Shown: in pieces, positions 13,635 through 50,329 of the stretch
Position numbering within the stretch: the stretch's first letter is position 1
Layout: each line of letters starts with the position of its first letter
Origin: Alloascoidea hylecoeti
Lineage: Eukaryota
NCBI GenBank assembly: GCA_001600815.1
Contig: BCKZ01000002.1
Location: 1,558,294-1,622,293 of the forward strand
Direction: 5' to 3'
DNA length: 64,000 bases
Translations under genes and position numbers: made by a program
Notes under the pieces: generated by a model
What the model saw: only the letters and a program-made list of their open reading frames with translations
Database searches by the model: none
Told to the model about the DNA's origin: nothing

Positions 13635-16352
13635 TCAAGCTCCAATCAATGTTTCGATTCTTTTAATTTCATCATATAACGCACAAATCTCATTAACAAC
13701 TTCTTTTCTTGCCTTTACTGAAAGCAAAGCACCAATTACAATGTCATGACCTGGGAAAAGTTTAGGAATAACGCTAAGAGCTTTAGCACAATTAATTTCT
13801 GAAGCATCTGCCTCATTAGTAACAGTCCCAGTTGAATTATTAGGCAAAAAAGAACCTTGGGATTCATCTATTGCTCTATGGATCAACGTATGAAGTATCG
13901 TTAATGATCTCTTTGATATTATCGCCAAAGATTTAGCAGCGTCAATGGATTCACCATTTAATATAACTCCAGCTGACATACTGCCTAGACGTAATAATGT
14001 AGCACCAAATCCATTTATGTCACGAATCCATGATAATGCAATATTCTTCTCACTTTCTGAATTTTGCTCCTCTTCCAATAAAGTTGGTCTATGACTAGGT
14101 ATCATAGATACTAATAATTCCACCACAAGTAAACCTTCCTGAATTAATGGACTTCTAACATCCAGTATTTTAAGTTCTAAACCAGTAAGGTCAGGAATTA
14201 CTGCATATGCAAATAATAGTGTTTCTGTATGTAGTATTGTGGAATCAAAGTCCGTTTTTCCAAAATAACCGGCAAGAACTTCTGAAGCATCCTTATCTGT
14301 AACTGTACCATTGAATATAGATACAAAATAAGATCTGTTGGGAGGATCTCTAATCATAACCTTAACCAATGAATCTAATGCACAACCATAATATTTATAT
14401 TTAGCCGGATAATAACGCTCTGGTTCAATTTCTTCTTCTTCTTCTTCTTCTTCTGAAATCTGTTCAATATCGTTCTCTGGACCAAACGATAAAATCAATA
14501 ATAAAAGCAATACACATTGCTTACAAGATTCAAAATGTAATCGATGACCAATATTTGAAAATATGACAATTAAATCTTTCATAAGTTGATGTCTTTTCCT
14601 TAACGAATGGAATGACACACCAGGTGTCCCTAAAACATGTATGAAATGAAATAACATCTTAGTGAAAAAGGGTGTAGAAAATAATACTGCAATATTAGCT
14701 TCATTAAATGTTAAATTTCGTATAGTCATAATGATTGTACTTAGTCTCTCAACTAAAAGTACTCGATGATCTTCTGCGGCATGAATATAAACATCATTAA
14801 AAGGTTCTTCAGCTTCTTCTTGACATCTTCGTAACATGGTACTGTATGCACCTAAAGAAAATGGGTTTAATGTAACTTCTATTCCAGATTCTTCATTTGT
14901 GTCCATTTCAGTATCTTCATCTTCATCTTCAAAATCATCATCATTTTTAGAATCATCAAGCTCCATTACTTCATCTTTTTGATATTCTTCATCAACTGGT
15001 AGTCCTGAAAAATTATCAACCTCAATAATAATTTTAGATTTATTATCTTTAAATGCTTTAGTGTATTTCTTAAAAATAAGATCAGCTGTAGAATTACCTT
15101 CATATTCATCTAATACCGTTTCAATGTCGTAGCTTTTATCTTGAAGTTCATTTTTAATTTCTTTATCTTTATCAAAAATTTCAAGAGTTTCCAGTGTTTC
15201 TAATGCACATGATGAAATAGCTTCAATTAACTCCTCACAGTTTCTCAATGTAAATTCTAATCGTTGTTCACTACTAATAATCAAGAATATATTCAATGCA
15301 TTGTTCAACTCAACTGGGCTCATGCTTCGTATAGACATAGTTAATGAATGAATATCAATGGTTCCTAATTCAGGTAAATAAATAAATCCAGGTTTTGAAG
15401 CTTCGATCTCAGCGCTGAGTTGACATAATACACCGACATCAGCTCCACCATGACCATTAGCAAATCTTTGATGAGGAACATATGATTTGACATGAGTTGG
15501 AAGCTGAATATTTACTTGATTTGGAACTGAAGGGGAAGCTTGTTTTTGATTCGGCACTTGGTTTGGTTGTGAACCAATTGGACCAGTTGACGATTTATTG
15601 GATGCCAAATTTGATACAACAGGCGAGATGCCTCCCATTGGTGTAGCTCTTCCACTAGAAGTTGTCTCTTTGATTTGTCGTGCTTGATTCGTAGAAATGC
15701 CCGTTTGTTGTGGTGGCATTGAAGTTTTAGGTAATGAATTAGAAAATCTTCGTGGTGACATTAGCATTGGGGTAGAAACTCTAGATGGTTTCTTTTGTAT
15801 TTGAACTTGTCTTTGCCCCGGTGTACCCTGTTGTTGCTGAACTTGTTGTTGTTGAACTTGTTGTTGCTGAACTTGTTGTTGCTGAACTTGTTGTTGCTGA
15901 ACTTGTTGTTGCTGAGCTTGTTGAACTTGCTGTTGAACCTGTTGAGCTTGTTGTTGAGCTTGTTGAGCTTGTTGAGCTTGTTGAGCTTGTTGAGCTTGTT
16001 GCTGCTGTGCCTGCTGTTGTGCCTGCTGTTGTGCTAATTGTTGTTGAGCCTGCTGAGCTTGTTGGACTTGCCGAGCTTGCTGCTGGGCTTGTTGTTGCGC
16101 AAGTTGTTGAGCCTTTTGAGCCTGCTGTTGTTGCTGTTGAGCTTGCCGAACTTGTGCCAGTTGAGCCTGCTGGTTCTGTTGTTGTTGCTGAGCATGTTGC
16201 TTCTGATTTTGCATAAACAAAGAATTATTTAACTGTGAATGATTTTGGGTTGGAGTTTGGTTTGGAATTCCAGGACCTGGAGTAGAAGTAGCAGATTTTC
16301 TTTGTTGCATCATTTGTTGCATTTGTAATTGTTGCTGTTGTTGCAACTGACG

Positions 16353-16387
<35 letters not shown>

Positions 16388-17061
16388 GGATATGAACAGG
16401 AAGATTTTGATTTGGAGTTTGAGGAGTCGTTGTCAATGGAGACTCATTACCATTATTATTTTGATTTGATTTATTTGCATTCATTTGAGCCGTTGAATTT
16501 CTAATAGCAGTAAAAGCAGCATTTATTCTTGCCTTAAATTGTCTACCACCTTCTTCTGTTCTTAAATATTCATGAAATGGCTGCAAAACATTAATATATA
16601 AACCATTTAATTCTTGAATTGCACTTGGTGATTGTTGAACATTAATACCTAGTTTATTAGCAATTAATCCCCAAATGTGATTTGGTAATGGTTGATCTGT
16701 TGTTCCTTTTATTTTAGAAACTATTACATAAAAACCAAAAAGATTTATTCGTTTGCCTGTAATTGTTGGAGGACCAGTAAACGGTGTACCACGTCTTCTC
16801 AAGAAATCTTCTAATGTTTTATTAAACGCTTCTGTATTAACATATTGAGTGATTCTTTGATCGTTATGCGACCGTTGTTGAATACCCATTGCTGGTCCAG
16901 GAACTTGTCCAGGGACTTGTTGTCCTTGTATTTGATTTGGGACTTGGTTCGGTATTTGTCCAATCATTTGTTGCTGATGTGGAGATTGATGAGGTGATTG
17001 ACTTACACCAGGCATTGGTTCATTATTTTGGAACTGTTGTATTGGTTGATGACTTTGTAAC

Positions 17062-17121
<60 letters not shown>

Positions 17122-18414
17122 TGTTGTTGTTGTTGTTGTTGTTGTTGCATTATAGCTCTAGCAGCATCAGCTTGCAAATGTTGTTTATTTATTATTCCCT
17201 GTTGTTGTTGCATTTGAAAATTTTCCATACTAGCAGATGGAATATTATTAGGCATAATTCTTTGTGGTAATTGCATTTGTGACTGATCAGGAATTTGTCC
17301 AGGATGTCCAGGATGACCCGGATGACCTTGTTGTTGATGTAACTGATGTAATTGTTGCTGTTGTTGTTGCTGTTGTTGTTGCTGTATTTGTGTTTGACGG
17401 AAATGTTCCCTTCTCATATTTTGTTGATTTATAAAATTCATTCTTTGTTCTGGAGTCATGTTTTTAAGCATTGATTGAATTTGTAAATTCCTTGATACAT
17501 TATTATTATTACCTGCATTTTCCAAAAAATTTTGATAATTGGAAAGATGTGGATTCATATTTTGTTGTTGATTTTGATTTTGTTGGTTTGACTGAGGAGT
17601 TTGAGATTGATTCATTCCCCATGAAGGACTTCTATTATTCATTTGCTAATACATTATGAATTAAAAAAATTTTAAAAGGTTAATAATTTGGTTATGATTA
17701 TGAGGTTTGAGAGAAAAAAAAACGTGATTTTAAACTTACAGGTTGAGATTGAATTTGAGGAGAAACAACAGCTTGCTGTGGGCTATTCTGCACCATTTGT
17801 AATCTTTGTTGTTCATTAATATCTTGTTTGCCAGAATCTTGAAGTTGAACTTGTTGATTTTGTCCTGCTTGTCGATTTTGCATTGCTAAAATGGCCATTG
17901 GTGTTACAGTAGGACTATTACTTGAAGAAGTTTGTTTAAAAGTGGAAAGATCTGGTCGTGGAGAAGATTTTGAAATTTGTGGGGAATGAGAAGCCATACG
18001 TTCAGAACTTGGTTTACTTGGACCATTTTGACTTAAATTTGAAAAATCAAAAGGTGGAGGTTTTGAATGTTGCTGTTGTTGCTGATGAATATCAAACATA
18101 TCTGGTTGAGTAGTAAAAGACGCGGCCTTTTCCTGCTCAATACCATTACCACCATTTCTAAAAGAATCCATATTCCCATTATACAAACTTGACATAGTTA
18201 AATCATCATTTGAATCAGTAAGTCCATTATTTGAAACAATACTATTTTGTTGAGTAGTGGTGGTGATTCCGATACCCATTCCATCTTCAGGAAACATGGA
18301 AATAGATGAAGCATCGAAAAAACTATCCGACCCCGACGGCATCATAGTGTTACGGTCTTCTGTTTCAAGACCCATTGCTGGATCGTCATTCAGCCAGTAC
18401 AGTTGGTCAGCCAT
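13635..18414 (-). CDS. SWI1: SWI/SNF subunit Swi1 (ARID domain, Q/N-rich). Exons 18414 (or 18495)-17740 and 17645-13635
   Basis: ARID core (FLRRRGTP...INLFGFY...WGLIANKLG...LQPFHEY) and BAF250-like ELGTIDIHSLTMSIRS. Phase-0 intron 17646-17739 (GTAAGT...TATTAAC...TAG) joins the two long ORFs. Confidence 0.88.
15829..17148 (-). repeat. Coding polyQ / QQA / QQQQV repeats in SWI1
   Basis: (TTG/CTG)n tracts on + at ~16352-16388 and ~17062-17148. A 15-nt TGTTGTTGCTGAACT unit is repeated at ~15829-15915. Confidence 0.9.
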
Positions 18415-18630
18415 ACTTTTTTCAGACTCGGGGATATTCGATGGTTTCAACGCGAGGAAGTTGAGTGTGTATGAAAGGGTGGACGGGTGTTTCATATTAG
18501 TATACCAAACTGGATAAAACGAAAATATATTTATAATGATAAAAAGTACAATTAAACATTAAACAAATAACTAAAATATATATAAATATAAATGAAATAT
18601 AGTAGAATATAATATATATAATAGAATGAT

Positions 18631-19911
18631 TTAAAAGAAATAAAATCGTTTCTTTTCATGAAGTTTTTTACTTAAAGACTTGTAATATTCCATTTCACCC
18701 CAACAATCTCTTCCCCATTCACAACCAGCCATATTAACGACAAAATCCCTTGCCTTTGGATCATAAAATAACCCAGGATCATTCGCATTTTCAGCACAAG
18801 CACCAGGAGGGAAAGAATTAAATAAACGAAGAGGAACAAAACCTACTCGACTTCTAATCCAACCATGACTTGCATACATATCTTCTAAAGCATCTTGTTC
18901 TTTATGTTCCCATTTCATATGCATTTGTTCATATAAAACAGGATCCCACCAAAAATCCAATAATTGTTCCGTCCATTCACTTCTTTTTAATAAAAAACTA
19001 CCCAAGTTAAAACCTCCACAATCTTGAGTAATTATCAAATCAACAGGTTGTGATAAATCAACATGATCAATTTCATTTGGCATACCTAAAGGATTGTAAA
19101 CAGAAATAGATCTATAAAGACCATTTCTTTTATTATTAATGATATGTTTTTCAACAGAAAAACTTGGTTCCATTATAAAAGTATGTAAATCCATCCACCA
19201 AAACCATTCAGCTTCAGGAAATTCTCTCATGACTTCTTTTAAAATATCAGCTTTTTCCCAAGATTCTCTCCATTCATGACTATATTTTTTTTTAATAGTT
19301 AAATCTTTCAAGGTTATTCCATAACCATGTTTTGCAGCATATGCTTTTTTATTTGCAATACTACTTCTTTCAACAGACCATTCTTGAGGAGATTTCCATT
19401 TAACTACACCACCTCCTTCATTAACACCTAAAACTATAACGATTTTTGGTGGTAAAGATTCAGTCGGAGTAAAAGTCCAAATTATTGTTGATGCTATTGT
19501 TATAATGAGTAAGATTAATGATGAGAAAATGGTTATTGATTTTCGATATCTCCAAAAGAAATTTTTAAAAGATTTGAGGTTTAAATTTAAATTTAAATTT
19601 GAAGATGATGATGAATAATGATCATCATTTGGGGTTTCATAATTAACAAAATGATTTAAGAGTTTTTCAGGGTCATAATTTGGTTTTTTTGGAGTGAAAT
19701 TAGAAGAAGGGATAAACTTTGGTGAGAGAGAATTTGAAGTTGATGTTAAAGTTGAAGGTGACGAAGGTAATTTCGGACTAGATCTCTTTTTCCAAGATCC
19801 CTGGGAGCCCTGAGACCCCTGGGAGCCCTGAGTTAAGACCGAGGTGTCACCAGAAAAAGGCCCGGAGACGGTAGAAACCTGATCATCAAAGTCGATATTG
19901 GGGGAACCCAT
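18631..19911 (-). CDS. MNN10: Golgi alpha-1,6-mannosyltransferase (GT34)
   Basis: TM anchor, SIANKKAYAAKHGY, WRESWEK, WFWWMD, QDCGGFNLGSF, HKEQDALE, FVVNMAGCEWGRDC. First ATG at 19911. Confidence 0.9.
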   Translation of the reverse strand: MGSPNIDFDDQVSTVSGPFSGDTSVLTQGSQGSQGSQGSWKKRSSPKLPSSPSTLTSTSNSLSPKFIPSSNFTPKKPNYDPEKLLNHFVNYETPNDDHYSSSSSNLNLNLNLKSFKNFFWRYRKSITIFSSLILLIITIASTIIWTFTPTESLPPKIVIVLGVNEGGGVVKWKSPQEWSVERSSIANKKAYAAKHGYGITLKDLTIKKKYSHEWRESWEKADILKEVMREFPEAEWFWWMDLHTFIMEPSFSVEKHIINNKRNGLYRSISVYNPLGMPNEIDHVDLSQPVDLIITQDCGGFNLGSFLLKRSEWTEQLLDFWWDPVLYEQMHMKWEHKEQDALEDMYASHGWIRSRVGFVPLRLFNSFPPGACAENANDPGLFYDPKARDFVVNMAGCEWGRDCWGEMEYYKSLSKKLHEKKRFYFF

Positions 19912-20307
19912 TTGGAGCCAAAATGGAGGTGAGGAAAAAAGGTTTTTTGGAAAAGATAACTGGAGGTATAAATAGAACGAGGAAATCTCAAGAATAGGTG
20001 TATTGTGTAACCTTAAAAGGACAAAGAAGCAAAAAATAAACAAACAAATGAAACCCCTTAAATTAGTAAAATATTAATGGTGAAAATGGTAAATTGGTTG
20101 AAGAGTAGAAAATGGGCCGTAACTTTAGCTAAAAAACGTCAATCAAATCATTTAATTTTCATTTTCATTTTCATTTTCACTTTTTTTTATTTCGTATCTA
20201 CAATGTTCATGATTATTAATAATTCTGCTACGATACACACTAATTATAATCTTCTTGTACATCAAACACCAATACATCTCAACTGTGCCTCACCTCCACA
20301 ATAAATA

Positions 20308-20961
20308 ATGTCTTTCCTGGATATTTACACAGACAATATCACCTTTGAACAATTTCGTTCAACCTATACGTCGTACCTTCAAACCCAAGGAATTTTAAAT
20401 TTGGTTAATGGCGATGTCAATCCAACAGATTCTTCATGGTTGGCAGCTAACCAAAAGGCAATGAATTTCATAACTGATAATTCCACCTTACGATTACAAG
20501 AACTAATCAAAGTCCATAATCAGGAGGAACAAGAGCCTACTCCATATTATGTTGCAAAAGAAGTAATGTTTGCTCTAGAATCTATATTCGATGGTGTTAA
20601 ATATCCTTGTGATATCTATAGGGAAGTTGATTCTTTACGTTTTGCTGCTGGTTTAAATTATCAACGAAATAATTATTATAATAATGGTATAAGTTTCATA
20701 AATGAACATGGTCAAAACGATGAAACGGCTGAACAATTTGGTAATAGAGTTGTTCGATTATTTGATGAAGCAAAAATGATGGGTATCATTTATACTGAAG
20801 ATTCAAAAAAAAATATTTTTAGAAATTCTCTTTATGGTACAAAATATGAAATGTATGTTAATTTATTTAGAGATAAAGAATATATGTTACCCCAAATGAT
20901 AAAAGAATTGAAAAAAATTGAAAAAGCTGAAAGTCAACGAATGATTTATGAAATTTTATAA
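20308..20961 (+). CDS. Stand-alone Ty1/copia Gag-like capsid protein, 217 aa, candidate domesticated gene
   Basis: Pattern YLQTQGILNLVNG...W..ANQKAMNFI...AKEVMFALESIF...ETAEQFGNRVVRLFDEAKMMG...IFRNSL resembles the copia Gag UBN2/Retrotran_gag_2 region. No pol, LTR or PBS seen nearby. Confidence 0.7.
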   Translation: MSFLDIYTDNITFEQFRSTYTSYLQTQGILNLVNGDVNPTDSSWLAANQKAMNFITDNSTLRLQELIKVHNQEEQEPTPYYVAKEVMFALESIFDGVKYPCDIYREVDSLRFAAGLNYQRNNYYNNGISFINEHGQNDETAEQFGNRVVRLFDEAKMMGIIYTEDSKKNIFRNSLYGTKYEMYVNLFRDKEYMLPQMIKELKKIEKAESQRMIYEIL

Positions 20962-21284
20962 TACTTTATGATTATCTCTTAACATTAATGTTAACATATT
21001 TGGAAAGGAAAGAAAAACTAGTGCGTTGTTGACACCTAAATAGGTTCATGAAAAGTATCGTTAAGTTTGCTTAAATAGAGTGATCATGATATTCTTAGTA
21101 TTGAAAAAGAGTGCTGTTCTAGTAAAGCTAATGTCTAGATCTTGCTTGTTTGAGAGAAAAGTCACACAAAATTCATCTGTTACAAATTAAACCAGTGGAA
21201 TACTTTTGCTTACTGTTTGTTTCAACAGTTAATTGTATTTCTTGTTTCAACTAATTATATAAATTAAATAAATATAGCTATTAA

Positions 21285-23171
21285 TTATTGTGTAATACTA
21301 GCACCATTACTCATTCCTCCTTTAACTTGAGCAGCAGGATGCCTTCTTAATTCAGAAGGTACTTTACTAACAGGAGAATTACTCAATGCTTGTTTTAAAT
21401 CATAGAATAATGGTTCATCTTCTTTACCTAAAAATGTAATGGATGTACCTTTTTTACCTGCTCTACCAGTTCTACCAATTCTATGTGTATAAGAATCCAT
21501 ATTATTAGCCATTTGATAATTAATTACCAATGAAACATCATTAATATCAAGTCCTCTACCTGCAACATCAGTACCAATTAAAATATCAGCTTTATGAGTT
21601 TTTAATTGTTGTAATGCTAATTCTCTTTGATCTTGTGATTTATCACCATGTATTGTAACAACTTTAAAACCATGATTATTTAATGCTGAACTTATTGGAT
21701 CAATATGTTTTTTAAAATTAACAAATATAATTATTGGTGGTTCATAATATTTATATCTATAATCACCATATCTATCATATGTTGAAGAAGTTGAAGAAAT
21801 GCCTAAAATTTCTTTTAATCTTTTAATTCTTTTATGTTCTGGTATAAATTCAATAAGTTGTTCAACAGTATCAACTGCTGATGACGAATCACCAATTGTA
21901 ACAATTACTGGATTATTTAAATATTCATTTGCAATTTTTTCAATTGTTGGTGGCATTGTTGCTGTATACATCATTGTTTGTCTCTTTTTTTTCATAATTG
22001 CATTAATTGTCGAAAAATCTTTTTCAATTTCATCATCATCATCATTTTCTTCAATATCTGCCATTGATTGTAAAATTGTTTGAACTTGTTCTCCAAATCC
22101 TTGTTCAATCATTCTATCTGCTTCATCTAAAATAACATAACAACATTGTCTTAAAACAATGACTCTTAATCCTAAAACATCTAATAATCTGCCAGGTGTT
22201 GCAACAACAATTTCAGCACCTTGTTGAACATTATAAGCTTGAGTTTCTAAATTATGTCCACCAATAATTGAAACAACATTAAAACCTAAAGGTTTACAAA
22301 ATTTTTCAGCTTCTGATGCAATTTGTTGAGCTAATTCACGAACAGGTGCTAATATTATAGCATATGGACCATTTGTTTTTGTTATTTCATTTAAAGGTGG
22401 TAAATCAATAATATGTGAAAGTAATGGTATAATAAAAGAAGCAGTTTTACCTGATCCTGTTTGTGCAATACCTAAAACATCTCTATTTGATAAAGCAATT
22501 GGTATAGCAGCTCTTTGAATTGGAGTTGGTTCTAAATATCCAATATTTTGAATTATAGATAATAAAGGTTTTGGAATATTTGATTCTTCCCATGATCTTA
22601 ATGGTGTTGGTAATGTCATATTATTAATTTCTTTTCCTTTTATTTGAATATTAAATTCTTCTCTAAAAATCCTCCAATCTCTTTCTTTCATTTCTAATTT
22701 TGTTTTATTTCTCCATGGTAAATAATTATTATTACCATTTTTTGAAATTTTTAATTCTAATTTATTTAAATCATTATTTTTTTTGTTTAATATATTTAAA
22801 TGATATAGTGGTTGATAAATTCCTGTATCTTCTGATTTATCCCATTCAAAATTAAATTTTGAAAATTTTTTTGATATATTTTTATTAATTGGATTTTTTT
22901 TAGTTATAAGTTTTTGCTTTTTTAATAAATGATTGTTTGTGTATTCATTTTCATATTCATTATCATTATTATCATTATTATCATTATTAGTTAGAGTTGA
23001 AGTAATAGTAGTGAGAGTTTGTGATTGTTTTGTTTGATGCTTTTCTTTTAATCTTTCCAATGCCCTTCTGTGTCTTTCCTTTTTAGACAAAAAAACAGGT
23101 TTTGATTTTTCTTCTTCCTTTTTTTTATTACTATTTATTAAATCTTCTATTGATATTGGAGTTTTACCCAT
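21285..23171 (-). CDS. PRP28: Pre-mRNA splicing DEAD-box helicase
   Basis: N-terminal KPVFLSKKER, FNFEWDKSEDT, MKERDWRIFREEFNI, AQTGSGKT, DEAD, HRIGRTGRAG, ELRRHPAAQ. Confidence 0.95.
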   Translation of the reverse strand: MGKTPISIEDLINSNKKKEEEKSKPVFLSKKERHRRALERLKEKHQTKQSQTLTTITSTLTNNDNNDNNDNEYENEYTNNHLLKKQKLITKKNPINKNISKKFSKFNFEWDKSEDTGIYQPLYHLNILNKKNNDLNKLELKISKNGNNNYLPWRNKTKLEMKERDWRIFREEFNIQIKGKEINNMTLPTPLRSWEESNIPKPLLSIIQNIGYLEPTPIQRAAIPIALSNRDVLGIAQTGSGKTASFIIPLLSHIIDLPPLNEITKTNGPYAIILAPVRELAQQIASEAEKFCKPLGFNVVSIIGGHNLETQAYNVQQGAEIVVATPGRLLDVLGLRVIVLRQCCYVILDEADRMIEQGFGEQVQTILQSMADIEENDDDDEIEKDFSTINAIMKKKRQTMMYTATMPPTIEKIANEYLNNPVIVTIGDSSSAVDTVEQLIEFIPEHKRIKRLKEILGISSTSSTYDRYGDYRYKYYEPPIIIFVNFKKHIDPISSALNNHGFKVVTIHGDKSQDQRELALQQLKTHKADILIGTDVAGRGLDINDVSLVINYQMANNMDSYTHRIGRTGRAGKKGTSITFLGKEDEPLFYDLKQALSNSPVSKVPSELRRHPAAQVKGGMSNGASITQ

Positions 23172-23326: not shown

Positions 23327-23824
23327 ATGTCTTTTATGAATGGAGGCGGTGGCGAATGCTCAACGGGTCGTAATCCGTTGGCCCAGTTTACAAAACAAGC
23401 CGATGGAAATCAAGCCCATAATACAATCTTGGGACAACCCGGAGCCCAAGGTAGTGCTCAAGGTGGCCGAATGATGAAGCAGAGTCAGGGGCAAATCAAC
23501 AGTGCAAATAAAGAAGCAATAGAAAGATTTTTCATAGATCAACAACCTCCTCAAGCTCAGGACCCTTTTCAGTTTGATGGTATGCGAGACAGCTTACCTC
23601 AGGCGCCTACTCCACAGCAAATGGCCAATAGAGGACCTAATAATTGGGCTCAGGAATTTCAACCGGGTGCTCCACAGGCTACTATACAACCACAAGCCCA
23701 GCACCATCAGAATCAAGTGTCACAGGGTTGGGGCGCAGAGTTTGAAGCAAGAGGTCAGGCTCCTGTCTCGGCTCAACCGATGGATCAACAAGCTTATGCC
23801 CCCGGAATGTCTATGGGTATGAAT

Positions 23825-23857
<33 letters not shown>

Positions 23858-25174
23858 GGAATGGGTAACTATGCTCGTTATCAAGGACAATCTCAATTTA
23901 ATCAGATTCCACAACAACAACAAGCTCCTCAACAACCTCAAGTCGTTGAGTTGGATGAAAAAAATTGGGAAGAACAATTTAAAAAAATTGAAGAAAATGC
24001 AGTTGAAGCTGCAAAAGAAACAACGGCTGAAAAACCTGAGACAGCAACATCAAATGGTAAACAAAAAGAATCCGAAGGAGAACCACAAGCAACAACTTCT
24101 GCACCACAAAATAAAGACTTTGAATCCATTTGGAATGAAATTTCTTCAACTGTACTTAATGAACAATATTGGACTGATGATAACACTCATGCAACATGGG
24201 AAAGAGATTTCCAACATTATTCTCAAAATAGATTAAATTATGGTGATTATCATTTTGAAGAAAATAATCAATTTTTAGATCATCCTGATCCTTTTTCAAT
24301 TGGTGTTCAATTACAGGATGGCGGTGCTAAATTATCTGAAGCTGCTTTAGCTTTTGAAGCTGCTTGTCAAAAAGAACCAGAACATGCCGAAGCATGGGAA
24401 CGTTTAGGTGCTGTTCAAACACAAAATGAAAAAGAAGATGCTGGTATTAGAGCTTTAGAAAGAGCTCTTCAAATTGACGGTGGTAATTTAAATACATTAA
24501 TGAATTTAGCAGTTTCTTATATCAACGAAGGTTTTGATAATGCTGCTTATGCAACATTAGAAAAATGGATTTCTACAAAATATCCAGAAGTTACATCAGA
24601 AGCAAGAACTCAAGAACCACAATTGGCGAATGAAAATAGATATCAATTACATAATCGTGTAACTGAATTATTCATTCGAGCCGCTCAACTTTCTCCTGAT
24701 GCTGCAAATATGGATGCTGATGTTCAAATGGGTCTTGGTGTTTTATTTTATGGTAACGAAGAATATGATAAAACGATTGATTGTTTTAGAGCTGCTTTGA
24801 AAGTTCGTCCTGATGATGCTTTACTTTGGAATAGACTTGGTGCATCCTTAGCTAATTCTCAACGATCAGAAGAAGCTGTTGATGCTTATTTCCAAGCATT
24901 AAATCTTAGACCAACTTTTGTAAGAGCACGATACAATCTAGGTGTTTCATGTATTAATATTGGTTGTTATAAAGAAGCTGTTGAACATTTACTTGGTGCT
25001 TTAAGTATGCACAGAGTTGAAGGTGTTAGTAATGAAGCTGTAAGTGCCAATGTTTCTACAAATTTGTATGAGACTTTGAAAAGAGCATTTTTAGCTATGG
25101 ACAGAAGAGATTTAGTAGAAAAAGTTGGTCCTAGTATGAATGTTGATGATTTTAGAAATGAATTTTCTTTCTAA
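23327..25174 (+). CDS. PEX5: Peroxisomal PTS1 receptor
   Basis: N-terminal ubiquitination Cys (ECSTGRNPL), WxxxF motifs (WAQEF, WGAEF, WEEQF) and C-terminal TPRs (LWNRLGASLAN, VRARYNLG). ATG at 23327. Confidence 0.96.
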
Positions 25175-28603: not shown

Positions 28604-30976
28604 CTGAAGTGAAAAACTTAATATTCGACAAAATTTACCTTGGTTAATTCGACAAAACTCTGAAAAAAATGTGTAACGGTAGATATAAAAGAGTCCATTA
28701 ATAATATACAACGAATGATCCAACAGAATCCCGGCTAAAGAGCCACTTACTGCATGCCAATAGACTCTTTTATTTCTATACATTTTTTCTGTTACTTTTG
28801 TGATCTATTTTATACAGAACTTCGATTCCGCCATATGATACAAGTGTTAGATTCTAGAACTTCAATGTTCATTCATAGACCTAATAATTTTTAAACAATT
28901 TATATACTGGTCATTTGCTAAGATATATAAACATATATAGTTAAATAGTTTTAAAAGAAATGGGGGTATCTTGAAGGTTGATAATAGAAATACTGTTAGG
29001 TTATGAGCCCTGGCGTTACTACATCGTTTACAATGCAATATACTTTAACACTTTTCCAGCGTATAAAAAAATATCTTAAGAGTGAAAAAGATCCTATTAC
29101 CCAAGAAACAGGTAAAAAGGTTCTCAAAGGCTTACTAGATGACAATTATTACGATCGATATCATTGGCAAATCTTCTAGTGCTAAGGAGATCGAATTAAT
29201 CGAAAATATATTAACATTTCAATATGATGCTCGTTTTGATCAAGCCTTATCGTCCGTTTTGATTTTCAGAAAAATACAGAGTCATTAAAAAGAATTTACG
29301 ATAGTTTTGATTATACCAATACCGAGATTCTCAATAGATTTAAATCTCCAAATATTGAGAAAATTAATTAATGCAAGTTTGTTGCTCTTGGTGTCACCGG
29401 ATCTCACTTACCGGATCAATGCTGGTCCAAAGTTCAATATCCAGTTACACAAGATATGATCTCTTATTCATATGAAGGTCAATCTTGTATACTTTGTTGT
29501 GATTTATGTCATTCTGCAAAGCACACAACATCAAAATGTCCTAAGTATAAAAAACTTTATGAACAATTTCAGAAACAGACAGCAAATTTAGTCAAAAAAG
29601 AAAATCCTTACAAAAATGAGTGTGCAACTTATTTTTGATTCAGGAGCTTCACAAATGATTTTGAATTCTAAAAAATTCTTTAAAACATTGAATGATTTAT
29701 TCAAGCAATAGAAATAAAGAAACCGTAACCATTGCAGACGGACGGATCCAAACAAGTTATAGAAGATCGGGTTATATTGCACTAGAACTTGGTTCGGAAG
29801 TTTATGAATTATATACCCTATATATGCCCACAACTTATTTTCTCCTGCTTCTTTAAAAGAACATATTTTTCAACTTGGACATGGTGTTGTAACTATGTTA
29901 ACTCCTGATTATAAAAATAGTGTTACAATTGCAAACAAAAAAATAATAGTTATATTTTAAAGACATCTCCGATGGTTAAAGCTAGTATGAAAAAAAATAT
30001 TGCAGTTACTCCTTTATTAGTTCTTTAAAGCCCAAGTGATGAAATTATACCAGACAATAATTTAAATGATATAAACTATACAGAGCTTCATCGGCGTCTA
30101 GGTTATGTTGATACCACTAAAATTCGTAAAAGTGATAAAAAGATCAACAATATGGATTGTGATACTTGTTCAATATCAAAATCAAAAAGAGAACCATTTC
30201 ATGGTACAATGAAAAAAAATTAATGATGAGATTGGAAGAATTTTGCATGTCTACATAGCATTTGGTTTTGGTACCGGTTTAAGTCAAAACAAACAAATTT
30301 TTAGTAATTGTAGAACAACATACCCGTTTTTTAATTACAATACCTTTAAATAATTCTAAAAATTTAATAAAATTATTTAAACCACAACTTTTGTATTTAG
30401 AAAGAATAATGGGATATAAAATTCAAGAAGTACACTCTGACAATGGTTCTGATTTGGTGGCTATCTGATAATCTTTGGAATATAGGAATTAAGTTATCCA
30501 TCTCTCAACCTTATACCCCACAACAAAACAGTATCGCTGAGAGGACTATCCAAACTGTAAAACAACTGATGATGAATTTATTAGTATCACCAAGACTTCC
30601 TGACTTCTTCTGGGATTATGCACTTATCCAAGTAGCCAATATATACAATATATCATAATGCTATTCAAACTTCCCCATATTTTGCATTACATCAAGTTCC
30701 TTTCAATACAAATTCCATTCCTATCTTCGGTACAGTTGCATATATGGTTAATCTAAATGCACTAAAAAAGGAATCACAGAAATTATTGGAAAATCGTAAA
30801 GCTATTAGAGTTCTAATTTTAGGCATACCAACAACCAAATCAGGCTTTCCTTGTATGGATTTAACAACATATAAAATGACATCATCAAGAGATGTTAAAT
30901 TAACGAATACATTTTTATCCACAAATGAACTAAAATAATTAGAGTTCGCTTTGGAAATTGATTAAAATAAAATATG

Positions 30977-31310: not shown

Positions 31311-31460
31311 GGATATCATTGTTTCTATTTACCTCTCCCTATCCGATTGAGCTATTTTGGGCGGCCTCAAAATCTCGTTTTAAACGTGAGCTTGTTGATA
31401 AAGAGGAGGAATTAATTGAAAAATTCCGTGATGCCGTGAAATCCATACCGAAGGAATATT
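31311..31460 (+). mobile_element. C-terminal fragment of a Tc1/IS630-type DDE transposase
   Basis: GYHCFYLP-[deleted/frameshifted]-PIELFWAASKSRFKRE...LIEKFRDAVKSIP matches the LPPYSPELNPIE.W motif of DDE_3 transposases. Confidence 0.7.
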
Positions 31461-32337
31461 ATCACAAAGAGATACACAACGAAATAATTCATTTCTTCCT
31501 CAACCAAACATTGAGATGCTCGCAAATAAAAGTAGACTTTTATGCTTAACAAAAGAAGCTGCTACAAATGCACTTGAAAATAGCACTATTTCAATTGGAC
31601 TTAAAAATAATGGTGATGTAATAAGAACAGCGCAGGACTTAAGAAGGGAGTTTAAGAACTTTTGCTGCTCTTTAAAAAAAGATGATTTAAATGGGTTTGA
31701 AACTCAAGAATCAGCTAAATTTACTTGTTACTGTTATTTTGCTATTCAAGTTGGAATTAAAATTGTCCCGCAAAAGCCAATGGGCCTTAAAAACAAAGAG
31801 AGGATAAATCATAAGAATTTCAGTCTAAAATGTGATCAATGTAAAGAAAGGGTTTATGACATTTGTAAGGATGATGATCATTGGAACAAAAAAAAATTAA
31901 TGAAAATAGAAAAATTGAATGCATGTTAGCTAAACAAACCCTAACAGAAGGTAAGTCTAAACTAGAAAATAAAAAAAAAAGAGAACATTATCCTTATTGA
32001 GGATATCATTAAATGGTTCACTCGGCTATGTAAAAAAGAATTTGGTATTAAATTTAGCGATCAGAAATTTAAGGACATTATAACTTGTGCTACAATCTTG
32101 GTCTTGCAAGACAATAAATACGGTTTTGGTTTTACCACGACTTGTTTTGATCCTAACGGAGATACATGCTATGAAATTACAGAATTAGTGACAAAAGATA
32201 ATAAAGATTATTATCCGGTCCCAATATCACCACCTGAATCTCAAATTTTGACTCAGGAAGAATTAAAATCTATAGTAAAAAAAATAAAAAAGGCTATAGA
32301 TAAAAGAAGATACCTTTTTTATTTTGATTGGTCTTGA
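31459..32337 (+). pseudogene. 5'-truncated, frameshifted paralogue of the 416-aa ORF at 33159
   Basis: Nucleotide and peptide similarity (NKSRLLCLTKEAATN...RTAQDLRREFKNFCCSLK; LVLQDNKYGF...DNKDYYPVP). Frameshifts fall at A-runs near 31890 and 31975. Confidence 0.85.
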
Positions 32338-33158
32338 TTGTAAAGTATCATGGAGCTGTATAATTTTGCAATCCACGACGAATTAATAGATGAATGAATT
32401 TTATAATTTCATTTATTTTTATCTTAATATTGGGTAGGATAATACATATACATAATATATAATATATATAAGGATTTTAATCGAATTTCTATTATGATGA
32501 ATGAACTGTCTGCTGAAAAGTCTCTTATCAATAATAGTTCGAACTATAGGACCATTATTGGGAAGTTATTATATCTTTCTAATTGGTTAAGAATTGATTT
32601 ATATATTGTCTCTTATTTGAGTCGTTTTACAAATTTGGAAAGTAAGGAAATCTGGACCATAACTTTGAATATTATGAAATATTTGGCTCATTACATTGAA
32701 GATGGAATTTTATTTGCAAAATGAAAATATTTACTGCAACTGCCTTCAAAATGTGAGCTGCATGCGCATAAGGACCCTTATGTTTAACGTTACATTACTT
32801 CCTCATTCAGATTAAAGATAAAGTTGTGCAATTATAAAAATATAAGCTGCCATCTGATAAAATTACAAGTCTAACAACTGCGGTGCTCATGTTAAAGTCA
32901 ATCGCATGTATTTGTGTCACAAGTGGAAAAAAGATCTTATGCATACATAGTCATTTATGACATTTGAAATGCATAAATTTATAGTTTAAGTAGTTATAAT
33001 TGGGCAATCATATACCTAAGGACACCGTCGTAAATTTGGTATATGACATCGTAGGCAGTTAGTAGCTATAGTATTATTATGATCCCTTAACTTAGATGTG
33101 TTATCATATGATATTATACAATCCTTAAAATAACCCTCATAAAAATATAGATCAGTCT

Positions 33159-34409
33159 ATGGAAAATGAGCTCTTCCACAAATTTTCTATATTTTCAAGT
33201 AAACCATCAATGGAATCTCAAAATATTTTCGATGATATGAATTTATGCTTCTTTTATGAGGATCACTTAGATGATTTACTCAACACTGAACATTATATAA
33301 ATGAATATGACAATCCTGATATACATGTATGTAAAAGACCCAATCCTCCTGAACTAAACAATAACATACACATAAAAAGACCTAGATCTGACTTAAGCTT
33401 AACTAATGATCATGAAGGTGCAGCATATGAATGTGCAGAGGAAGTAATCGCAATCGACTTATGTATTTCAAATGGACAAGGCAATAACTCACAGTATAGG
33501 TATAGTGGTACTGAAAATAATTCTGTCGATGTGTTATCACAAAGAGATACACTGCAATTACAACGAAATAATTCATTTCTTCTTCAACCAAACATTGAGA
33601 TCTCAAATAAAAGTAGACTTTTATGCTTAACAAAAGAAGCTGCTACAAATGAACTTGAAAATAGCACTATTTCAACTGGACTTAAAAATAATTGTAATGT
33701 AATAAGAACAGCGCAGGACTTAAGAAGGGAGTTTAAGAACTTTTGCTGCTCTTTAAAACCACATGATTTAGATGGGTTTGAAACTCAAGAATTAGCTAAA
33801 TTTACTTGTTACTGTTATTTTGCTGTTCAAAATGGAATCTTAATTGCACCACAAAAGTCTATAGGACTTAAGGACAAAGACACTCTTGAAAATTTTAAAG
33901 TTTTCAGCTTAAAATGCTTACGATGTAATAGGAGAGTCTATGGCGCCAAATATATTGATAATCATTGGGAAAAAATAAGTTTTAATGCACATAGAAACAT
34001 TGAATGCATGTCAGCTAAACAAACCCTATTGCAGCCAACAGAAGGTAAGTCTAAACTAGAAAGAGAAATTTATCCTTATATTGAAGATATCATTAAATGG
34101 TTTATTCGGCTATGGAAAAAAGAATATGGTATTAAATTAAGCGATCGGAAATTTAAGGACATTATAACCTGTGCTACAAGCTTGGTCTTGCAAGACAATA
34201 AATACGGTTTTGCCGCGACTTGTATTGGTTCTAACAGAGATACATACTATGAAATTACAAAATTAGTGACAATAGATAATAAAGATTATTATCCGGTCCC
34301 AATGTCACCACTTGAATCTCAAAGTTTGGCTCAGGAACATTTAAAATTTATAGTAGAAAAAATAAAAAAGGCTACAGATAAAAGGTATATCAAGCAGAGA
34401 AGTAAGTAG
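33159..34409 (+). CDS. Orphan 416-aa protein with a putative WRKY/GCM1 (FAR1/MULE-like) Zn-finger DNA-binding domain
   Basis: Intact ORF with a paralogue. FETQELAK....YFAVQNGILIAPQKS...FSLKCLRC...VY......HW....NAH....C resembles FAR1/Aft-type domains; the fold assignment is inference. Confidence 0.7.
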   Translation: MENELFHKFSIFSSKPSMESQNIFDDMNLCFFYEDHLDDLLNTEHYINEYDNPDIHVCKRPNPPELNNNIHIKRPRSDLSLTNDHEGAAYECAEEVIAIDLCISNGQGNNSQYRYSGTENNSVDVLSQRDTLQLQRNNSFLLQPNIEISNKSRLLCLTKEAATNELENSTISTGLKNNCNVIRTAQDLRREFKNFCCSLKPHDLDGFETQELAKFTCYCYFAVQNGILIAPQKSIGLKDKDTLENFKVFSLKCLRCNRRVYGAKYIDNHWEKISFNAHRNIECMSAKQTLLQPTEGKSKLEREIYPYIEDIIKWFIRLWKKEYGIKLSDRKFKDIITCATSLVLQDNKYGFAATCIGSNRDTYYEITKLVTIDNKDYYPVPMSPLESQSLAQEHLKFIVEKIKKATDKRYIKQRSK

Positions 34410-35166: not shown

Positions 35167-36929
35167 TTATTTTTGCCTTTTTCGTGTCCTTAGTGAGTCA
35201 TTACTCCCAAATGCGTTCCTTTTTGTTCCTGGTGCAGAAGACATAATATCATTATCCTCTTGTGCTATTCTCCTAGGAGGATATTCATATTTTTGTCCTT
35301 GAAATACACTATATAAAAATGTGTTAGAATTTGTTAAGATTGTTTTTAATAATCGGATCAAGTTCATACTTAGATGTCACCCGTGGTTGTTCTAAGAAAT
35401 ATGGGTATAATAATGCATCATTGGCGGTTAATCGCTTTGCAGGGTCATACTCGAGTAATGCTGATAAAAGTTGTAATCCCTTCTGGCTTGATGCTCCTAT
35501 CGAGTGATACCATGCCTCCAGGTTAGGTGGGAAAGTCTTGAATGTCTGTAATGCACCATATTCTGGATATTTTGGCAATGCTGGCCATTTGTCTTCTAAG
35601 AGAAAAAAGGGTTAAAAGGTTTTAAAGATTTAAATTAAAAAAGACAATATGCTTACTTGTGGGAGTACCAAGTATTTCGATTATTTTTTGCATCTGATTT
35701 CTTTGAAATGGAACTGTCTTTTTATTATCAATTTTTGCCTCTTCACCTTTAAATATAGGTCTCAATGCTAATAATTCAGCATAAATACAACCTACTGCCC
35801 ATAAATCAATAGCAGCAGTATAATGTCGTGCCCCTAATAATAACTCCGGAGATCTGTACCATATTGTAACAACTACTTTGTCACCTGTAAATAATGACTG
35901 AATTGGATTATCAAATAGACGCGCTAAACCTAGATCTCCAATCTTAACAACACCATCTGCTGATACCATAATATTTGCTGGTTTTAAATCCCGATGCAAG
36001 ACCCAATTTTGATGTAGGTACGAAACACCATTTATCAACTGCCACATAATGGATTTTACGGTTGATTCTGGTATGGGTTTCCTTTCTGGATGTGAATGAT
36101 AATGTATTATTTGCTAGGAAATAATTAGTATTTGATGATTAGAGGTTATGGAATATTCCCCAAACTTACTAAAAGATCATGTTCTGCAAATTCAGATACC
36201 ATATAAACACATTTCTTTTCTAGAATTACTTCGGCTAGTCGAACAACATTTTCATTTTGTAGTTCACGACATAACTTAATAAATTAGTATTAGTTTACTA
36301 TTATTTCTAATACCAAAGCGATTATTGTCTTCTAGGCAGAAATAATCAAACAAACCCACATACCGCCATTTCTCGGATTGCAGATTGTGAAAGACCAGTG
36401 TAATGTACGATCTCACCGTCCTTATCGGCCTTGAATTTCTTGATAGCATAAAGGCCATTACTATTTAGTACCGGGCATATATGATTAGTTTAAGGCTGGT
36501 TGTTGTCAGGCAGCGTAACCAAGTGGTATGGCTTTTTGACAACGCTAAATATCGAAATTACATACTTAGTTCGTGATGTTGCTTTGTATACCCTATTTCA
36601 TAAGGTTAAATTGACGTTAATGGCAAATTTGAAGCAGATTTCATTATTTTTCAAGTTGTTGTGAAAACATACCTTCCATACGTACCCGCAGCAATATATC
36701 CAATAATGTCATATTTTAGCACTACGGAGGTTCGAAGATTATCTTTGCGAAATTTATATGGTTCCAGAGTAAACACATTATTAGAGGACATGAGAACGGC
36801 TGAGTTGTTCGGATGTGGATGGTTGAGAGGTTGGTTTGATGAACTTTGATATCTAGCTTGTTGAGCCATGTAAGCTCTGTTTAACATGGATCGATGGACG
36901 TTTATTCTTCGTTGGTGGGAATCGCTCAT
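35167..36929 (-). CDS. SSN3: Mediator kinase Ssn3/Srb10/CDK8, 436 aa. Exons 36929-36673, 36592-36566, 36460-36364, 36274-36170, 36113-35657, 35595-35370, 35308-35167
   Basis: [71 protein letters not shown]. Six GT-AG introns; exons sum to 1311 nt. Confidence 0.95.
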
Positions 36930-37984
36930 AATATTGTCGTGCGGGTTCTGGTTAGAATCTCAGCTGTCAAACTCATACGATATTGGGCCGGCCTCAAATA
37001 TACGCTGACCTGTAATTGTGGGCATTAGGACTTATGCTACATATATGTAACTTCTTTCACAGTGACAAATGTAAGTCTTGTACTTTTGGCCATCAAAAAC
37101 CCTTGAATTCGTCCTTTTCGGTGTTTTTTTTATTTAATAATAAAAGTTGTTGAGTAAATAGAGGGTAAATAGATCAATAGATGTAAAGTTTATACCCGTA
37201 TGAGGTATTGAAATTTGGTTTTCCGTCTTGTTTTTACAACATTACATTTTATAGAACAAAGAATTTCAACTTTCAATTGCGATTGCAAGGTCCTTACTCA
37301 ATTAACTGCTTAATAGTGTAATTTTTTAAATATTAATATATAACCCTAAACAAACAGACCGTGATCACAATATTAATTGAAGTACCAGTGTGAATTAAAA
37401 CCAAATCGTGACTTATCATTAGCTATAAATATGTAGTAATGAAATTTTGGAACCAATATTCGAAAAGTTCCCAAAATTTATTTGGTTTTAAATTTCAAAA
37501 TATTGGTACACAGAAACTATCCACTGTATTCGGTACCAGTATCGATATCAAATAGGCAGTTGTGTCAAGCCGGTAGTCTTATAGCTATAGAGTGAGTAAG
37601 TAAAAGGCAATTTTGTGCGACTACGAACAATTCGTGCACTTTCATAATATAATTCTACATAATTTCTTAACCGTTAGCTATAGCTACCACTTAACAGGAC
37701 ACTAGCCATTAATTCTAAATATAATGGTCAGTTATGCCTATATGGAACATTGTTAAAAAGCTCAACGTAGAATAAGCATAATTGACTATATAGGTAAATA
37801 TATGGATCTATAGGGTTTGCTATATTTTTGAGAAACTCCAAAGATATATTACTAATCTGATCACAATTTCTTAAACATAATGTTATCGTACACGGTTATA
37901 TAGAAGGTTATAATCACCTAGTAAAATAGCATTGTATCAGGGAAGGAAACTTCGGCTATATGCCACACAGCCAATTGCAATGTC

Positions 37985-38890
37985 TACATATAGGGTAGTT
38001 TGATAGCAACCGCCCGCACATATGCATATTCTCCGCTATGTCCACTATTTCCATAGTTTTATCATTGTTAAGAATAGGTAAAATTTAGAAAAAAACCCTC
38101 ATGCGTTAATTAGCTCTAGGAGATGGCCAGTTCAAGTTTCCCAGTAGATTGAGTGCTTTGCATGGCGTAGCACACCGATGAAGTAGCGCCAATATAGGAC
38201 TGAAAGACAGCAGATGAACATTTTCACATCAGAAATAGAGTAATATTCCGCAAAATCAACCAACTTCATATTTTGTTTATTAGCCTCTTTAGTGAGCCAT
38301 TATGAAATAGACTTATTTTCAATCGGTATATCACCATTCAATCCAGAAGAAGTCTTAAAGAAGTGCAGGATGAAAAAAATACAGATAAGCCAGTTGAAAA
38401 TATGTCTATTGTGCATGGATGATTCCCGAAGAGGCTGATAAACAAACTATGAAGTAGTTGGGTTGATTTTGCGGATGAATTTTTTATTTTTGAAGAGAAG
38501 GTTACTCTTCTGAGTTCTATCGGCGTTGTATCTTAGCCACGCAAAGTATTGACTCCACTGAAAAACTTGAATAGGCCATCTTCTAGAGCTAACCCACGTA
38601 TGAGGAGGCTTTCTAAGATTTTACCTACTTTTAACATTGATGTAACGGAAATGGTGAACAATGTTGTGCCTTCATTTTTACGATTTATTCCACTTGCCGA
38701 CGTACACGAAAGGCTTATAAAATCTATAAGGAAAACTGCTAGATTATCCTGCGTCTTACCACAGAGAAGTATATTTTATATAAACAATAAATAATTTTGC
38801 AAAAATTGTTTTAACTTTTGTTTCTTATGCCATGGAGTGTATTTTGTGCGGGCGGTTACTACAAAACTCATGCTATACGCCTATATAAAT
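37985..38890 (+). ncRNA. Candidate long rod-like hairpin RNA or foldback element
   Basis: Colinear helices 38008-38020/38845-38857 (13 bp perfect), 38110-38128/38574-38592 (19 bp, 1 G.U) and 38247-38261/38461-38475 (15 bp perfect), plus further stems. The inverted repeat is clear; its identity as an RNA gene is inference. Confidence 0.5.

Positions 38891-44097: not shown

Positions 44098-44099
<2 letters not shown>

Positions 44100-44129
<30 letters not shown>
44100..44129. repeat. (TA)n microsatellite
   Basis: Uninterrupted TA run of ~14-15 units. Confidence 0.95.
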
Positions 44130-44132
<3 letters not shown>

Positions 44133-50100: not shown

Positions 50101-50329
50101 CCCACATTCAATTGCAATTGAAGTGTCAAAATCCAGTATAGTAGTTACAAATATTCAATCCAAACATCATCCTTGCTATTGTTTTTATAGAGTATTAGTA
50201 GTTACTGAAAATCCATCATTTGACCTTTGGATAGCATTCAATATATTCATTGTCAAAATAATTGACAGCACTAGAAATATTAGTATTGAATTTCAAAACC
50301 AAAAAATTTCATAATTATTCATTCACAAT

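Follow-up and report, generated by a model that had tools for sequence, protein, structure and literature searches.

Can the capsid gene of a retrotransposon survive by itself, as an ordinary gene among the housekeeping genes of a budding yeast? The question is raised by ORF X, an open reading frame (ORF) at 20308..20961 (+) in a 64,000-nucleotide stretch of the Alloascoidea hylecoeti genome (contig BCKZ01000002.1, positions 1,558,294 to 1,622,293; hereafter the window). ORF X is a candidate solo copia-type Gag capsid gene, distinguished by its length, its codon usage and its intact state in a second isolate. A preliminary description of the locus had proposed a domesticated Gag, possibly acting as a restriction factor or forming capsids. 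The analysis presented here indicates that ORF X may be a captured capsid gene; Gag capture itself is already known in fungi.

ORF X is a real protein-coding frame with host-like codon usage. It runs from an ATG at 20308 to a TAA ending at 20961 and encodes 217 residues with no internal stop, just as the preliminary description had stated. We simulated the 1373-bp intergenic interval (about 30% G+C) with first-order Markov models from two composition sources, 3000 sequences each. The longest ATG-initiated frames obtained had 139 and 127 codons, and none of the 3000 sequences per model reached 217. The ATG is in good start context, with an A at position -3, and the G+C content of the frame (0.297) and of its third codon positions (GC3, 0.203) are both within the host range. 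Codon tables were derived from housekeeping genes of the window (eleven or twelve of them), and with these the log-likelihood of ORF X was 0.317 bits per codon in frame and -0.34 and -0.22 in the other two frames. For comparison, host genes scored 0.21-0.58, unassigned ORFs -0.08 to 0.11, and the pieces of a copia relic located elsewhere in the window -0.08 to 0.27. As a separate observation, CTG codons are nearly absent from the window (0-4 per gene, none in PRP28; GC3 down to 0.06) and are too rare to be called as Leu, Ser or Ala; in ORF X only residue 4 is affected.

Two features could suggest that ORF X does not stand alone, being either spurious or a single exon within a larger gene that is spliced. 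Directly upstream, and in the same frame, lies a 75-codon frame that ends one codon before the ATG, with a single TAA in between, and ORF X itself contains one GTATGT, at 20853. However, the upstream frame is of low complexity and has a codon score of -0.003, and the TACTAAC branch point is absent from the interval, where only two loose matches occur. The length of ORF X is far beyond chance, and its frame-specific codon bias favors the annotated frame. We consider this explanation highly improbable, and an intron or N-terminal extension was rejected on the absence of TACTAAC and the low complexity of the upstream frame.

The Gag hypothesis was fixed beforehand and then tested with profiles of Pfam-confirmed copia Gags. 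The reference set was drawn from metagenome contigs carrying the conserved copia integrase motif (at least 108 loci), in which 67 upstream ORFs were labelled by Pfam; PF14223 was present at E ≤ 1e-5 in 29 of these 67 candidates. Profile A1 was made from 17 near full-length Gags, gag2 from 19 Gags aligned with L-INS-i, and gag3 from the same 19 aligned by a faster method. Among PDB sequences, A1 matched the Copia virus-like-particle protein (E = 1.4e-33), Ty1 p22 (6e-7) and Drt2 (2.8e-5), and also the C-terminal domain (CTD) of the Ty1' capsid. It is a valid capsid probe.

With HMMER, ORF X scored 6.6, 10.4 and 8.3 bits against the three Gag hidden Markov models (HMMs). Its own score was reached by 13, 0 and 7 of 5000 residue shuffles, respectively, and by 16, 2 and 1 of 5000 shuffles of 10-residue blocks. 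Since shuffling by blocks preserves local helix-like segments and the shuffled sequences nonetheless seldom attain the real score, the order of the segments matters. The analytic P value given by HMMER for a single comparison of ORF X with Gag was 1.8e-5. Alignment with hhalign gave P = 0.024 against A1 (145 columns, ORF X residues 12-190 against profile positions 15-168) and P = 0.0077 against gag2 (139 columns), where none of 165 shuffles reached the score (23.65, compared to 19.5 for the best shuffle). The alignments were colinear over ORF X residues about 12-190.

ORF X also stood out within the window. It ranked first for Gag score among 104 ORF segments, the next ones reaching 3.6-3.7 bits, and ORF X tiles took the top three places (9.2, 9.1 and 8.0 bits) among 1278 six-frame tiles. 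The next tile, at 6.9 bits, was a Gln-rich stretch by an ARID gene, and the 5' part of the copia relic supplied the sixth and seventh, at 4.4 bits. In the ESM Atlas, the ten best family-bearing neighbors of ORF X all belonged to Retrotran_gag_2 (PF14223) or its clan, with scores of 0.86-0.90.

These comparisons would assign ORF X residues to both lobes of a capsid. The part corresponding to the N-terminal lobe, placed by the hhalign alignments and with approximate boundaries, comprises residues about 12-115 (20341..20652, +). Its landmarks are TFEQF at the position of the NY..W motif and NG-DVNPTD, followed by W44 and then by K50-A51 and I55, while VAKEVMFALESIF aligned to the tA.e.W..L...y helix. 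This part also holds acidic and Asn-rich stretches of its own. The part corresponding to the C-terminal lobe of the capsid (CA-CTD), residues about 116-209 (20653..20934, +), is a weak profile match, with a HMMER domain at residues 135-206 scoring 8.9 bits. Among the other landmarks, DETAEQFGNRVVRLFDEAKMMG aligned to the E..I..Y......L...G helix, FRNSLYGTKYEMYV to the ..sLP..Y..fv helix and MIKELKKIEKAE to the L...E.R end. MAFFT alone produced the same N- and C-terminal correspondences as hhalign and misplaced the middle. These results show a weak colinear profile similarity of ORF X to bona fide copia Gag that exceeds chance, is low in absolute terms and depends on the alignment used. On this profile evidence, ORF X is probably of Gag ancestry.

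A number of results weigh against a Gag origin. Pfam hmmscan of ORF X at E ≤ 10 reported no Gag family, the only matches being CAF1 (E = 0.095) and Pox_I6_C (E = 0.21). The HMMER check against Retrotran_gag_2 that the preliminary description had proposed gave no match at this threshold, and the PF14223 gathering score of 27 bits was not reached. In the absence of a Pfam Gag match, ORF X is treated only as a candidate remote homologue and not as a member of the Pfam family. The phmmer comparison with PDB sequences found no Gag, only SH3BP5 at E = 0.7. Pairwise phmmer against 819 metagenome ORF windows gave no Gag enrichment (5 of the top 30, compared to 80 of the 819). The Gag score varied from 6.6 to 10.4 bits with the alignment used, over several that were tried. 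In the first HMMER domain the N-terminal half of ORF X scored -0.1 bits and is therefore the weaker half. Among windows labelled non-Gag, 20 of 739 also reached 6.6 bits, although this null is unclean because many of the 20 adjoin Gag domains. Feature overlap in the ESM Atlas was low (88-122 of 256), and according to the tool's own statement a family agreement of all ten neighbors also arises for a third of shuffled proteins. There was also no detectable similarity between ORF X and the decayed copia relic, the only element in the window (tblastn, best E = 11 there), and therefore no cognate target element was identified in the window.

Structure prediction belongs on the same side of the balance. 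The single-sequence AlphaFold model of ORF X was all-helical and poor (predicted local distance difference test, pLDDT, 47.7), and its Foldseek search returned nothing at E ≤ 0.001 and only meaningless matches. When guided by alignment A2 (ORF X plus 19 Gags), the model reached a pLDDT of 80.8 and a predicted template modelling score (pTM) of 0.56. Its top Foldseek ranks were Ty1 p22, the Ty1' CA-CTD, Drt2 and the PEG10 CA-CTD, with E = 0.078-0.77, target TM-scores of 0.66-0.72 and none at E ≤ 0.001. The A2-guided model is circular since its fold was supplied by the Gag alignment, and it therefore speaks for compatibility only. It was used just to place the lobes, with the N-terminal domain (NTD) at about 12-115 and the CTD at about 116-209.

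Large-scale searches for relatives of ORF X were blank. A word-indexed search of 5.8 billion clustered proteins gave 104 candidates, with ORF X itself as the sole true match, and a full HMMER scan against 1.84 billion representatives yielded only ORF X and P0002. The latter, a 1428-aa immunoglobulin C1-set repeat protein (E = 2.5e-4), was dismissed as spurious because its significance sums five repeated weak stretches. Translated search (tblastn) of the window recovered only the self match, the next best having E = 0.94, and hence no paralogue in the window. Protein scans for ORF X relatives gave 137 pattern matches in metagenome contigs and 5 in viral contigs, none of which was confirmed. However, even PRP28 had no closer non-self match in that database than one with 53% identity over 83% of the query, or 49-50% over 98%. 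The proteomes of close relatives are absent from it; therefore any fast-evolving protein of this yeast would look orphan, and the blank is less informative.

This bears directly on the possibility that ORF X is an all-helical host gene, specific to its lineage or evolving fast, that does not descend from a retroelement, its Gag likeness arising by chance or from the composition of helices rich in Lys, Glu, Asn and Leu. Such a gene would look orphan at the distance of the nearest available proteomes, and ORF X is indeed recognized by no curated model or database search, has host-like codon usage and shows neither high profile scores (6.6-10.4 bits) nor Gag enrichment in pairwise comparisons. 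Chance and composition fit less well with the finding that no more than 1-16 of 5000 block shuffles attain the real score, with ORF X being the top Gag-like stretch among both the 1278 tiles and the 104 real ORF segments, with the same N- and C-terminal correspondences being obtained independently by hhalign and MAFFT, and with named ESM neighbors that are uniformly Gag. We regard this explanation as unlikely; should the Gag resemblance be only chance, the locus would hold an ordinary orphan gene. The copia Gag helical pattern noted in the preliminary description is thus retained in part: custom profiles detect it at roughly P = 1e-3, but it is invisible to Pfam, and it is the weakest part of the observation. 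Similarly, the Gag-derived reading stands in that the colinear similarity exceeds both shuffled and real-sequence nulls, and falls short in that it lies well below any curated threshold.

Supposing a Gag origin, what has become of the rest of the element? The ORF X protein contains a single Cys, at residue 101, and two His and carries no CCHC zinc knuckle, Pfam found no pol domain in it, and it ends about ten residues past the last capsid motif. No direct repeats resembling long terminal repeats (LTRs) flank ORF X, and none match the copia relic. There is no tRNA gene within the window, and the one initiator-tRNA primer-binding motif that we searched for had no match with at most one mismatch. 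Downstream, the stop-rich convergent 3' intergenic region of 323 bp (20962..21284) extends to the PRP28 stop and contains no remnant of nucleocapsid, protease or pol by tblastn of the window, six-frame Gag-profile tiles or inspection of the letters. The absence of knuckle, pol and LTRs is what makes ORF X "solo". The solo state agrees with the preliminary description, which had reported no zinc knuckle, pol, LTR or primer-binding site (the last borne out for that single motif) and had named near-identity to an active element with flanking LTR remnants as evidence to the contrary; the direct-repeat search found none around ORF X.

Of four sequencing runs found to contain the stretch, three may be the source of this DNA; none of the four is RNA, which is no evidence on expression either way. 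The locus was compared with DNA from a second isolate (X4) and one metagenome run, and with two metatranscriptome runs. In the second isolate, positions 18883-21247 are spanned by one contig that differs at 4 sites and has no indels, and a second one covers PRP28. Six differences between the isolates were found in total, 2 intergenic and 4 coding, and all four coding ones are synonymous. The only single-nucleotide polymorphism (SNP) of the second isolate within ORF X is 20385 C>A, a synonymous change of codon 26 from ACC to ACA; a single SNP is no test of selection. ORF X is intact at the same position in the second isolate and in the metagenome, with one contig each. Its depth in both DNA runs is that of the single contig, and it is therefore single-copy at ≥85% nucleotide identity in those assemblies. 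The solo, single-copy and intact state of ORF X is thereby confirmed and is common to the second isolate. The two metatranscriptome runs yielded only unrelated short pieces and no contig of the organism over the locus, and are silent on expression.

How a copia element decays in this region can be seen about 8 kb from the end of ORF X, where the relic, a separate and stop-broken copia-type element, begins (28990..30935, +). It consists of gag-like, knuckle-like, DSGAS and integrase pieces. The integrase pieces at 30283..30935 are spread over three frames and match rve, rve_3 and SH3_retrovirus, with HHCC/integrase parts. Stops break both a DSGAS protease motif near 29630 and, near 29470, a Cys/His stretch resembling a knuckle, and no reverse transcriptase (RT) was found in the relic. 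The heavy decay attributed to this neighboring retroelement by the preliminary description is thus evident. A search with the relic integrase fragment for longer proteins gave 10 candidates, none of them significant, and the integrase motif had no matches in viral contigs.

Other frames lie beyond the relic. Directly after its integrase pieces, at 31432-32337 (+), lies a stop-broken paralogue of a frame found about 1.7 kb downstream at 33129-34409 (+), and the two share long stretches of nearly identical protein. The latter frame has 426 residues (416 from its first ATG at 33159) and no Pfam family, with a weak zinc-ribbon-like match only (Ribosomal_S27e, E = 3e-4). Protein-kinase pieces in several frames at 35327-36283 (-), the largest matching Pkinase with E = 2.5e-37, belong to a pseudogene or an intron-bearing gene. 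The region from about 36500 to 50300 (about 14 kb), next to the relic, is devoid of open frames of ≥103 codons and of significant Pfam families, and might be centromere-like or heterochromatic. Nowhere in the window is G+C lower than in its second half (0.27-0.29).

Since copia relics do decay in this region, ORF X might itself be a Gag-derived but functionless relic, left by a copia-type insertion that lost its LTRs and pol through deletion or rearrangement and whose gag frame is open by chance. Its location would be compatible with such a history, as it lies at a possible rearrangement breakpoint where MNN10 would have moved next to PRP28, if the S. cerevisiae order PRP28-PEX5-MNN10 is taken as reference. 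What neutral decay does not readily provide is 651 bp of open frame in DNA of 30% G+C, well above the simulated maximum of 139 codons, in a place where all other parts of the element are traceless. The codon usage of ORF X is in the range of host housekeeping genes and above that of the relic pieces, its ATG has a good start context, and the frame is intact in two isolates and the metagenome. In addition, the contigs of the second isolate hold no other copy at ≥85% nucleotide identity, and therefore ORF X was not inserted recently by a family that is still live. We judge a functionless relic to be quite unlikely.

We favor the explanation that a copia-type gag was endogenized as a solo gene and kept by the host at a housekeeping locus. 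The product of ORF X would be a highly diverged homologue of the Gag capsid of Ty1/copia elements (Pseudoviridae). It would keep both lobes (CA-NTD and CA-CTD), and it lacks the nucleocapsid zinc knuckle, protease, integrase, RT and LTRs. That ORF X is both Gag-derived and maintained as a gene seems to us an evenly balanced proposition. Its maintenance by selection as a host gene may be given about the same credence. By analogy with Ty1 p22/p18 and Drt2, its most likely function would be to act trans-dominantly as a capsid protein, binding through capsid interfaces to the Gag of related copia-type elements, co-assembling with it and so poisoning the assembly of virus-like particles. Such a capsid-poisoning restriction factor is a tentative proposal, suggested by the analogy, and we hold it to be doubtful. 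Roles of the Arc type, in which a capsid packages or carries RNA, are less likely because the nucleocapsid domain is absent.

The immediate surroundings of ORF X are well defined. On one side lies a glycosyltransferase gene of the GT34 GMA12/MNN10 family (18631..19911, -; Pfam PF05637, E = 4.3e-72), and on the other a PRP28-type DEAD-box helicase gene (21285..23171, -; Pfam DEAD and Helicase_C, best named matches PRP28/DDX23). ORF X is divergent from the former and convergent with the latter, and the arrangement given in the preliminary description is borne out by the Pfam families and best named matches of both neighbors. ORF X and the MNN10-family gene have in common a divergent 5' intergenic region of 396 bp (19912..20307, no strand assigned), a putative promoter, with one TATA-like site at 19967 and a (TTCATT)n repeat at about 20158-20184. 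Beyond PRP28 lies a tetratricopeptide repeat (TPR) gene (23327..25174, +), for which PEX5-like is our own label, as no match names PEX5. The divergent PRP28-PEX5 pair with MNN10 nearby resembles the order PRP28-PEX5-MNN10 of S. cerevisiae chromosome IV. Relative to that order, the MNN10-family gene of A. hylecoeti lies on the opposite flank of PRP28, and ORF X occupies the junction. TRS23/TRAPPC4, of about 219 aa and a neighbor of MNN10 in S. cerevisiae, was considered for its synteny as an identity for ORF X and rejected, given that no Sybindin-type Pfam match was obtained at E ≤ 10 and the protein is predicted to be all-helical.

Other observations concern genes further along the window. A diverged paralogue of the GT34 gene exists elsewhere in the genome, seen in the metagenome and the second isolate as a second contig about 85% identical over 18885-19386. 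A 265-codon frame at 17698-18495 (-) has strongly host-like codon usage (0.372) and is separated by 55 bp from the same-strand ARID/SWI1-like gene downstream of it (13635-17642, -). It may be the N-terminal part of that gene, split off by an intron, a frameshift or a mistake in the assembly. A single N is present at 54535, inside a pyridoxal-dependent decarboxylase gene.

One reference for ORF X is the Drosophila Copia capsid (PDB 8vvw, 8s41), which is matched at E = 1.4e-33 by the same A1 profile to which ORF X aligns colinearly. In contrast to that capsid and to Retrotran_gag_2, ORF X is below the Pfam report threshold and has no knuckle, and no protease, integrase or RT comes after it. The animal Gag-derived genes Fv1, enJS56A1, Arc, PEG10, PNMA and MOAP1 embody the same concept of a capsid gene kept by its host, and their CTD folds are among the matches of the alignment-guided (and thus circular) ORF X model. 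However, they derive from Ty3/gypsy elements or retroviruses and not from copia, and the RNA-carrying capsid functions known in animals need nucleic-acid-binding parts that ORF X lacks.

In fungi, co-option of copia-type gag has precedents. In Dothideomycetes, the Ty1/Copia gag genes Crtg12 and Crtg13 have been co-opted (Wang and Han, 2021, PMC8321522). In that survey of deep gag co-option, Crtg12-14 are the three fungal cases, spanning Dothideomycetes and Tremellales, and Crtg genes were defined by synteny above the family level, selection and RNA-seq (PMC8321522). Like Crtg12 and Crtg13, ORF X would be a single-copy fungal gene derived from a copia-type gag. Those two genes, however, reside in Pezizomycotina. 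The text of the survey contains no word beginning with "Saccharomyc" (PMC8321522), and a screen for co-option of transposable elements in fungi names gag only in passing in the part that we consulted (PMC10799480). A limited literature search found no co-option of copia gag in yeasts outside Saccharomyces. Were the Gag origin of ORF X correct, it would provide an independent case of a stand-alone full-capsid gene in a distant budding yeast. It would also mean that captured gag genes can drift so far that Pfam no longer recognizes them and screens based on domains overlook them.

The closest known parallels come from S. cerevisiae. Gag-derived restriction in yeast is established there alone, and only for the Ty1 family, with p22/p18 encoded by the element itself and Drt2 (domesticated restriction of Ty1' relic 2) as an endogenized gene. 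Drt2 is described as an endogenized Gag CA-CTD restriction factor (PMC10951436; PMC13709905). Both Ty1 p22/p18 and Drt2 are reported there to act by co-assembly with Gag and poisoning of the lattice (PMC13709905; PMC10951436). Drt2 still has recognizable Ty1' sequence and lies among solo LTRs and tRNA genes in a genome with cognate active elements (PMC10951436). Near ORF X, by comparison, there is neither an LTR nor a tRNA gene; its sequence has diverged too far for Pfam, and it has no recognizable cognate element. It would resemble Drt2 in being a budding-yeast gene derived from Ty1/copia gag at a fixed chromosomal position, with no pol, and the mode of action proposed for it is the same. Its best-aligned part (about 116-209) would correspond to the CA-CTD lobe that constitutes Drt2 and p22, the structures of this type used for comparison being PDB 9rxy and 7nlh. 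A further difference is one of extent, since Drt2 and p22 comprise the CA-CTD only, while ORF X appears to keep both lobes and has its own ATG.

It is conceivable, though we would call it doubtful, that a yeast far from Saccharomyces has fixed a complete two-lobed copia capsid gene, devoid of nucleocapsid, at a housekeeping locus and uses it as a trans-dominant assembly inhibitor or as a self-assembling host capsid. A 2026 review suggests that further control systems of this kind be sought among the retrotransposons of other yeasts and in other organisms (PMC13709905). If ORF X is one of them, it would suggest that Gag capture is a recurrent route of transposon control in yeasts poor in RNA interference. 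ORF X would then be the first such gene outside the Saccharomyces Ty1 family and, set beside p22 and Drt2, the first yeast example to retain the N-terminal lobe.

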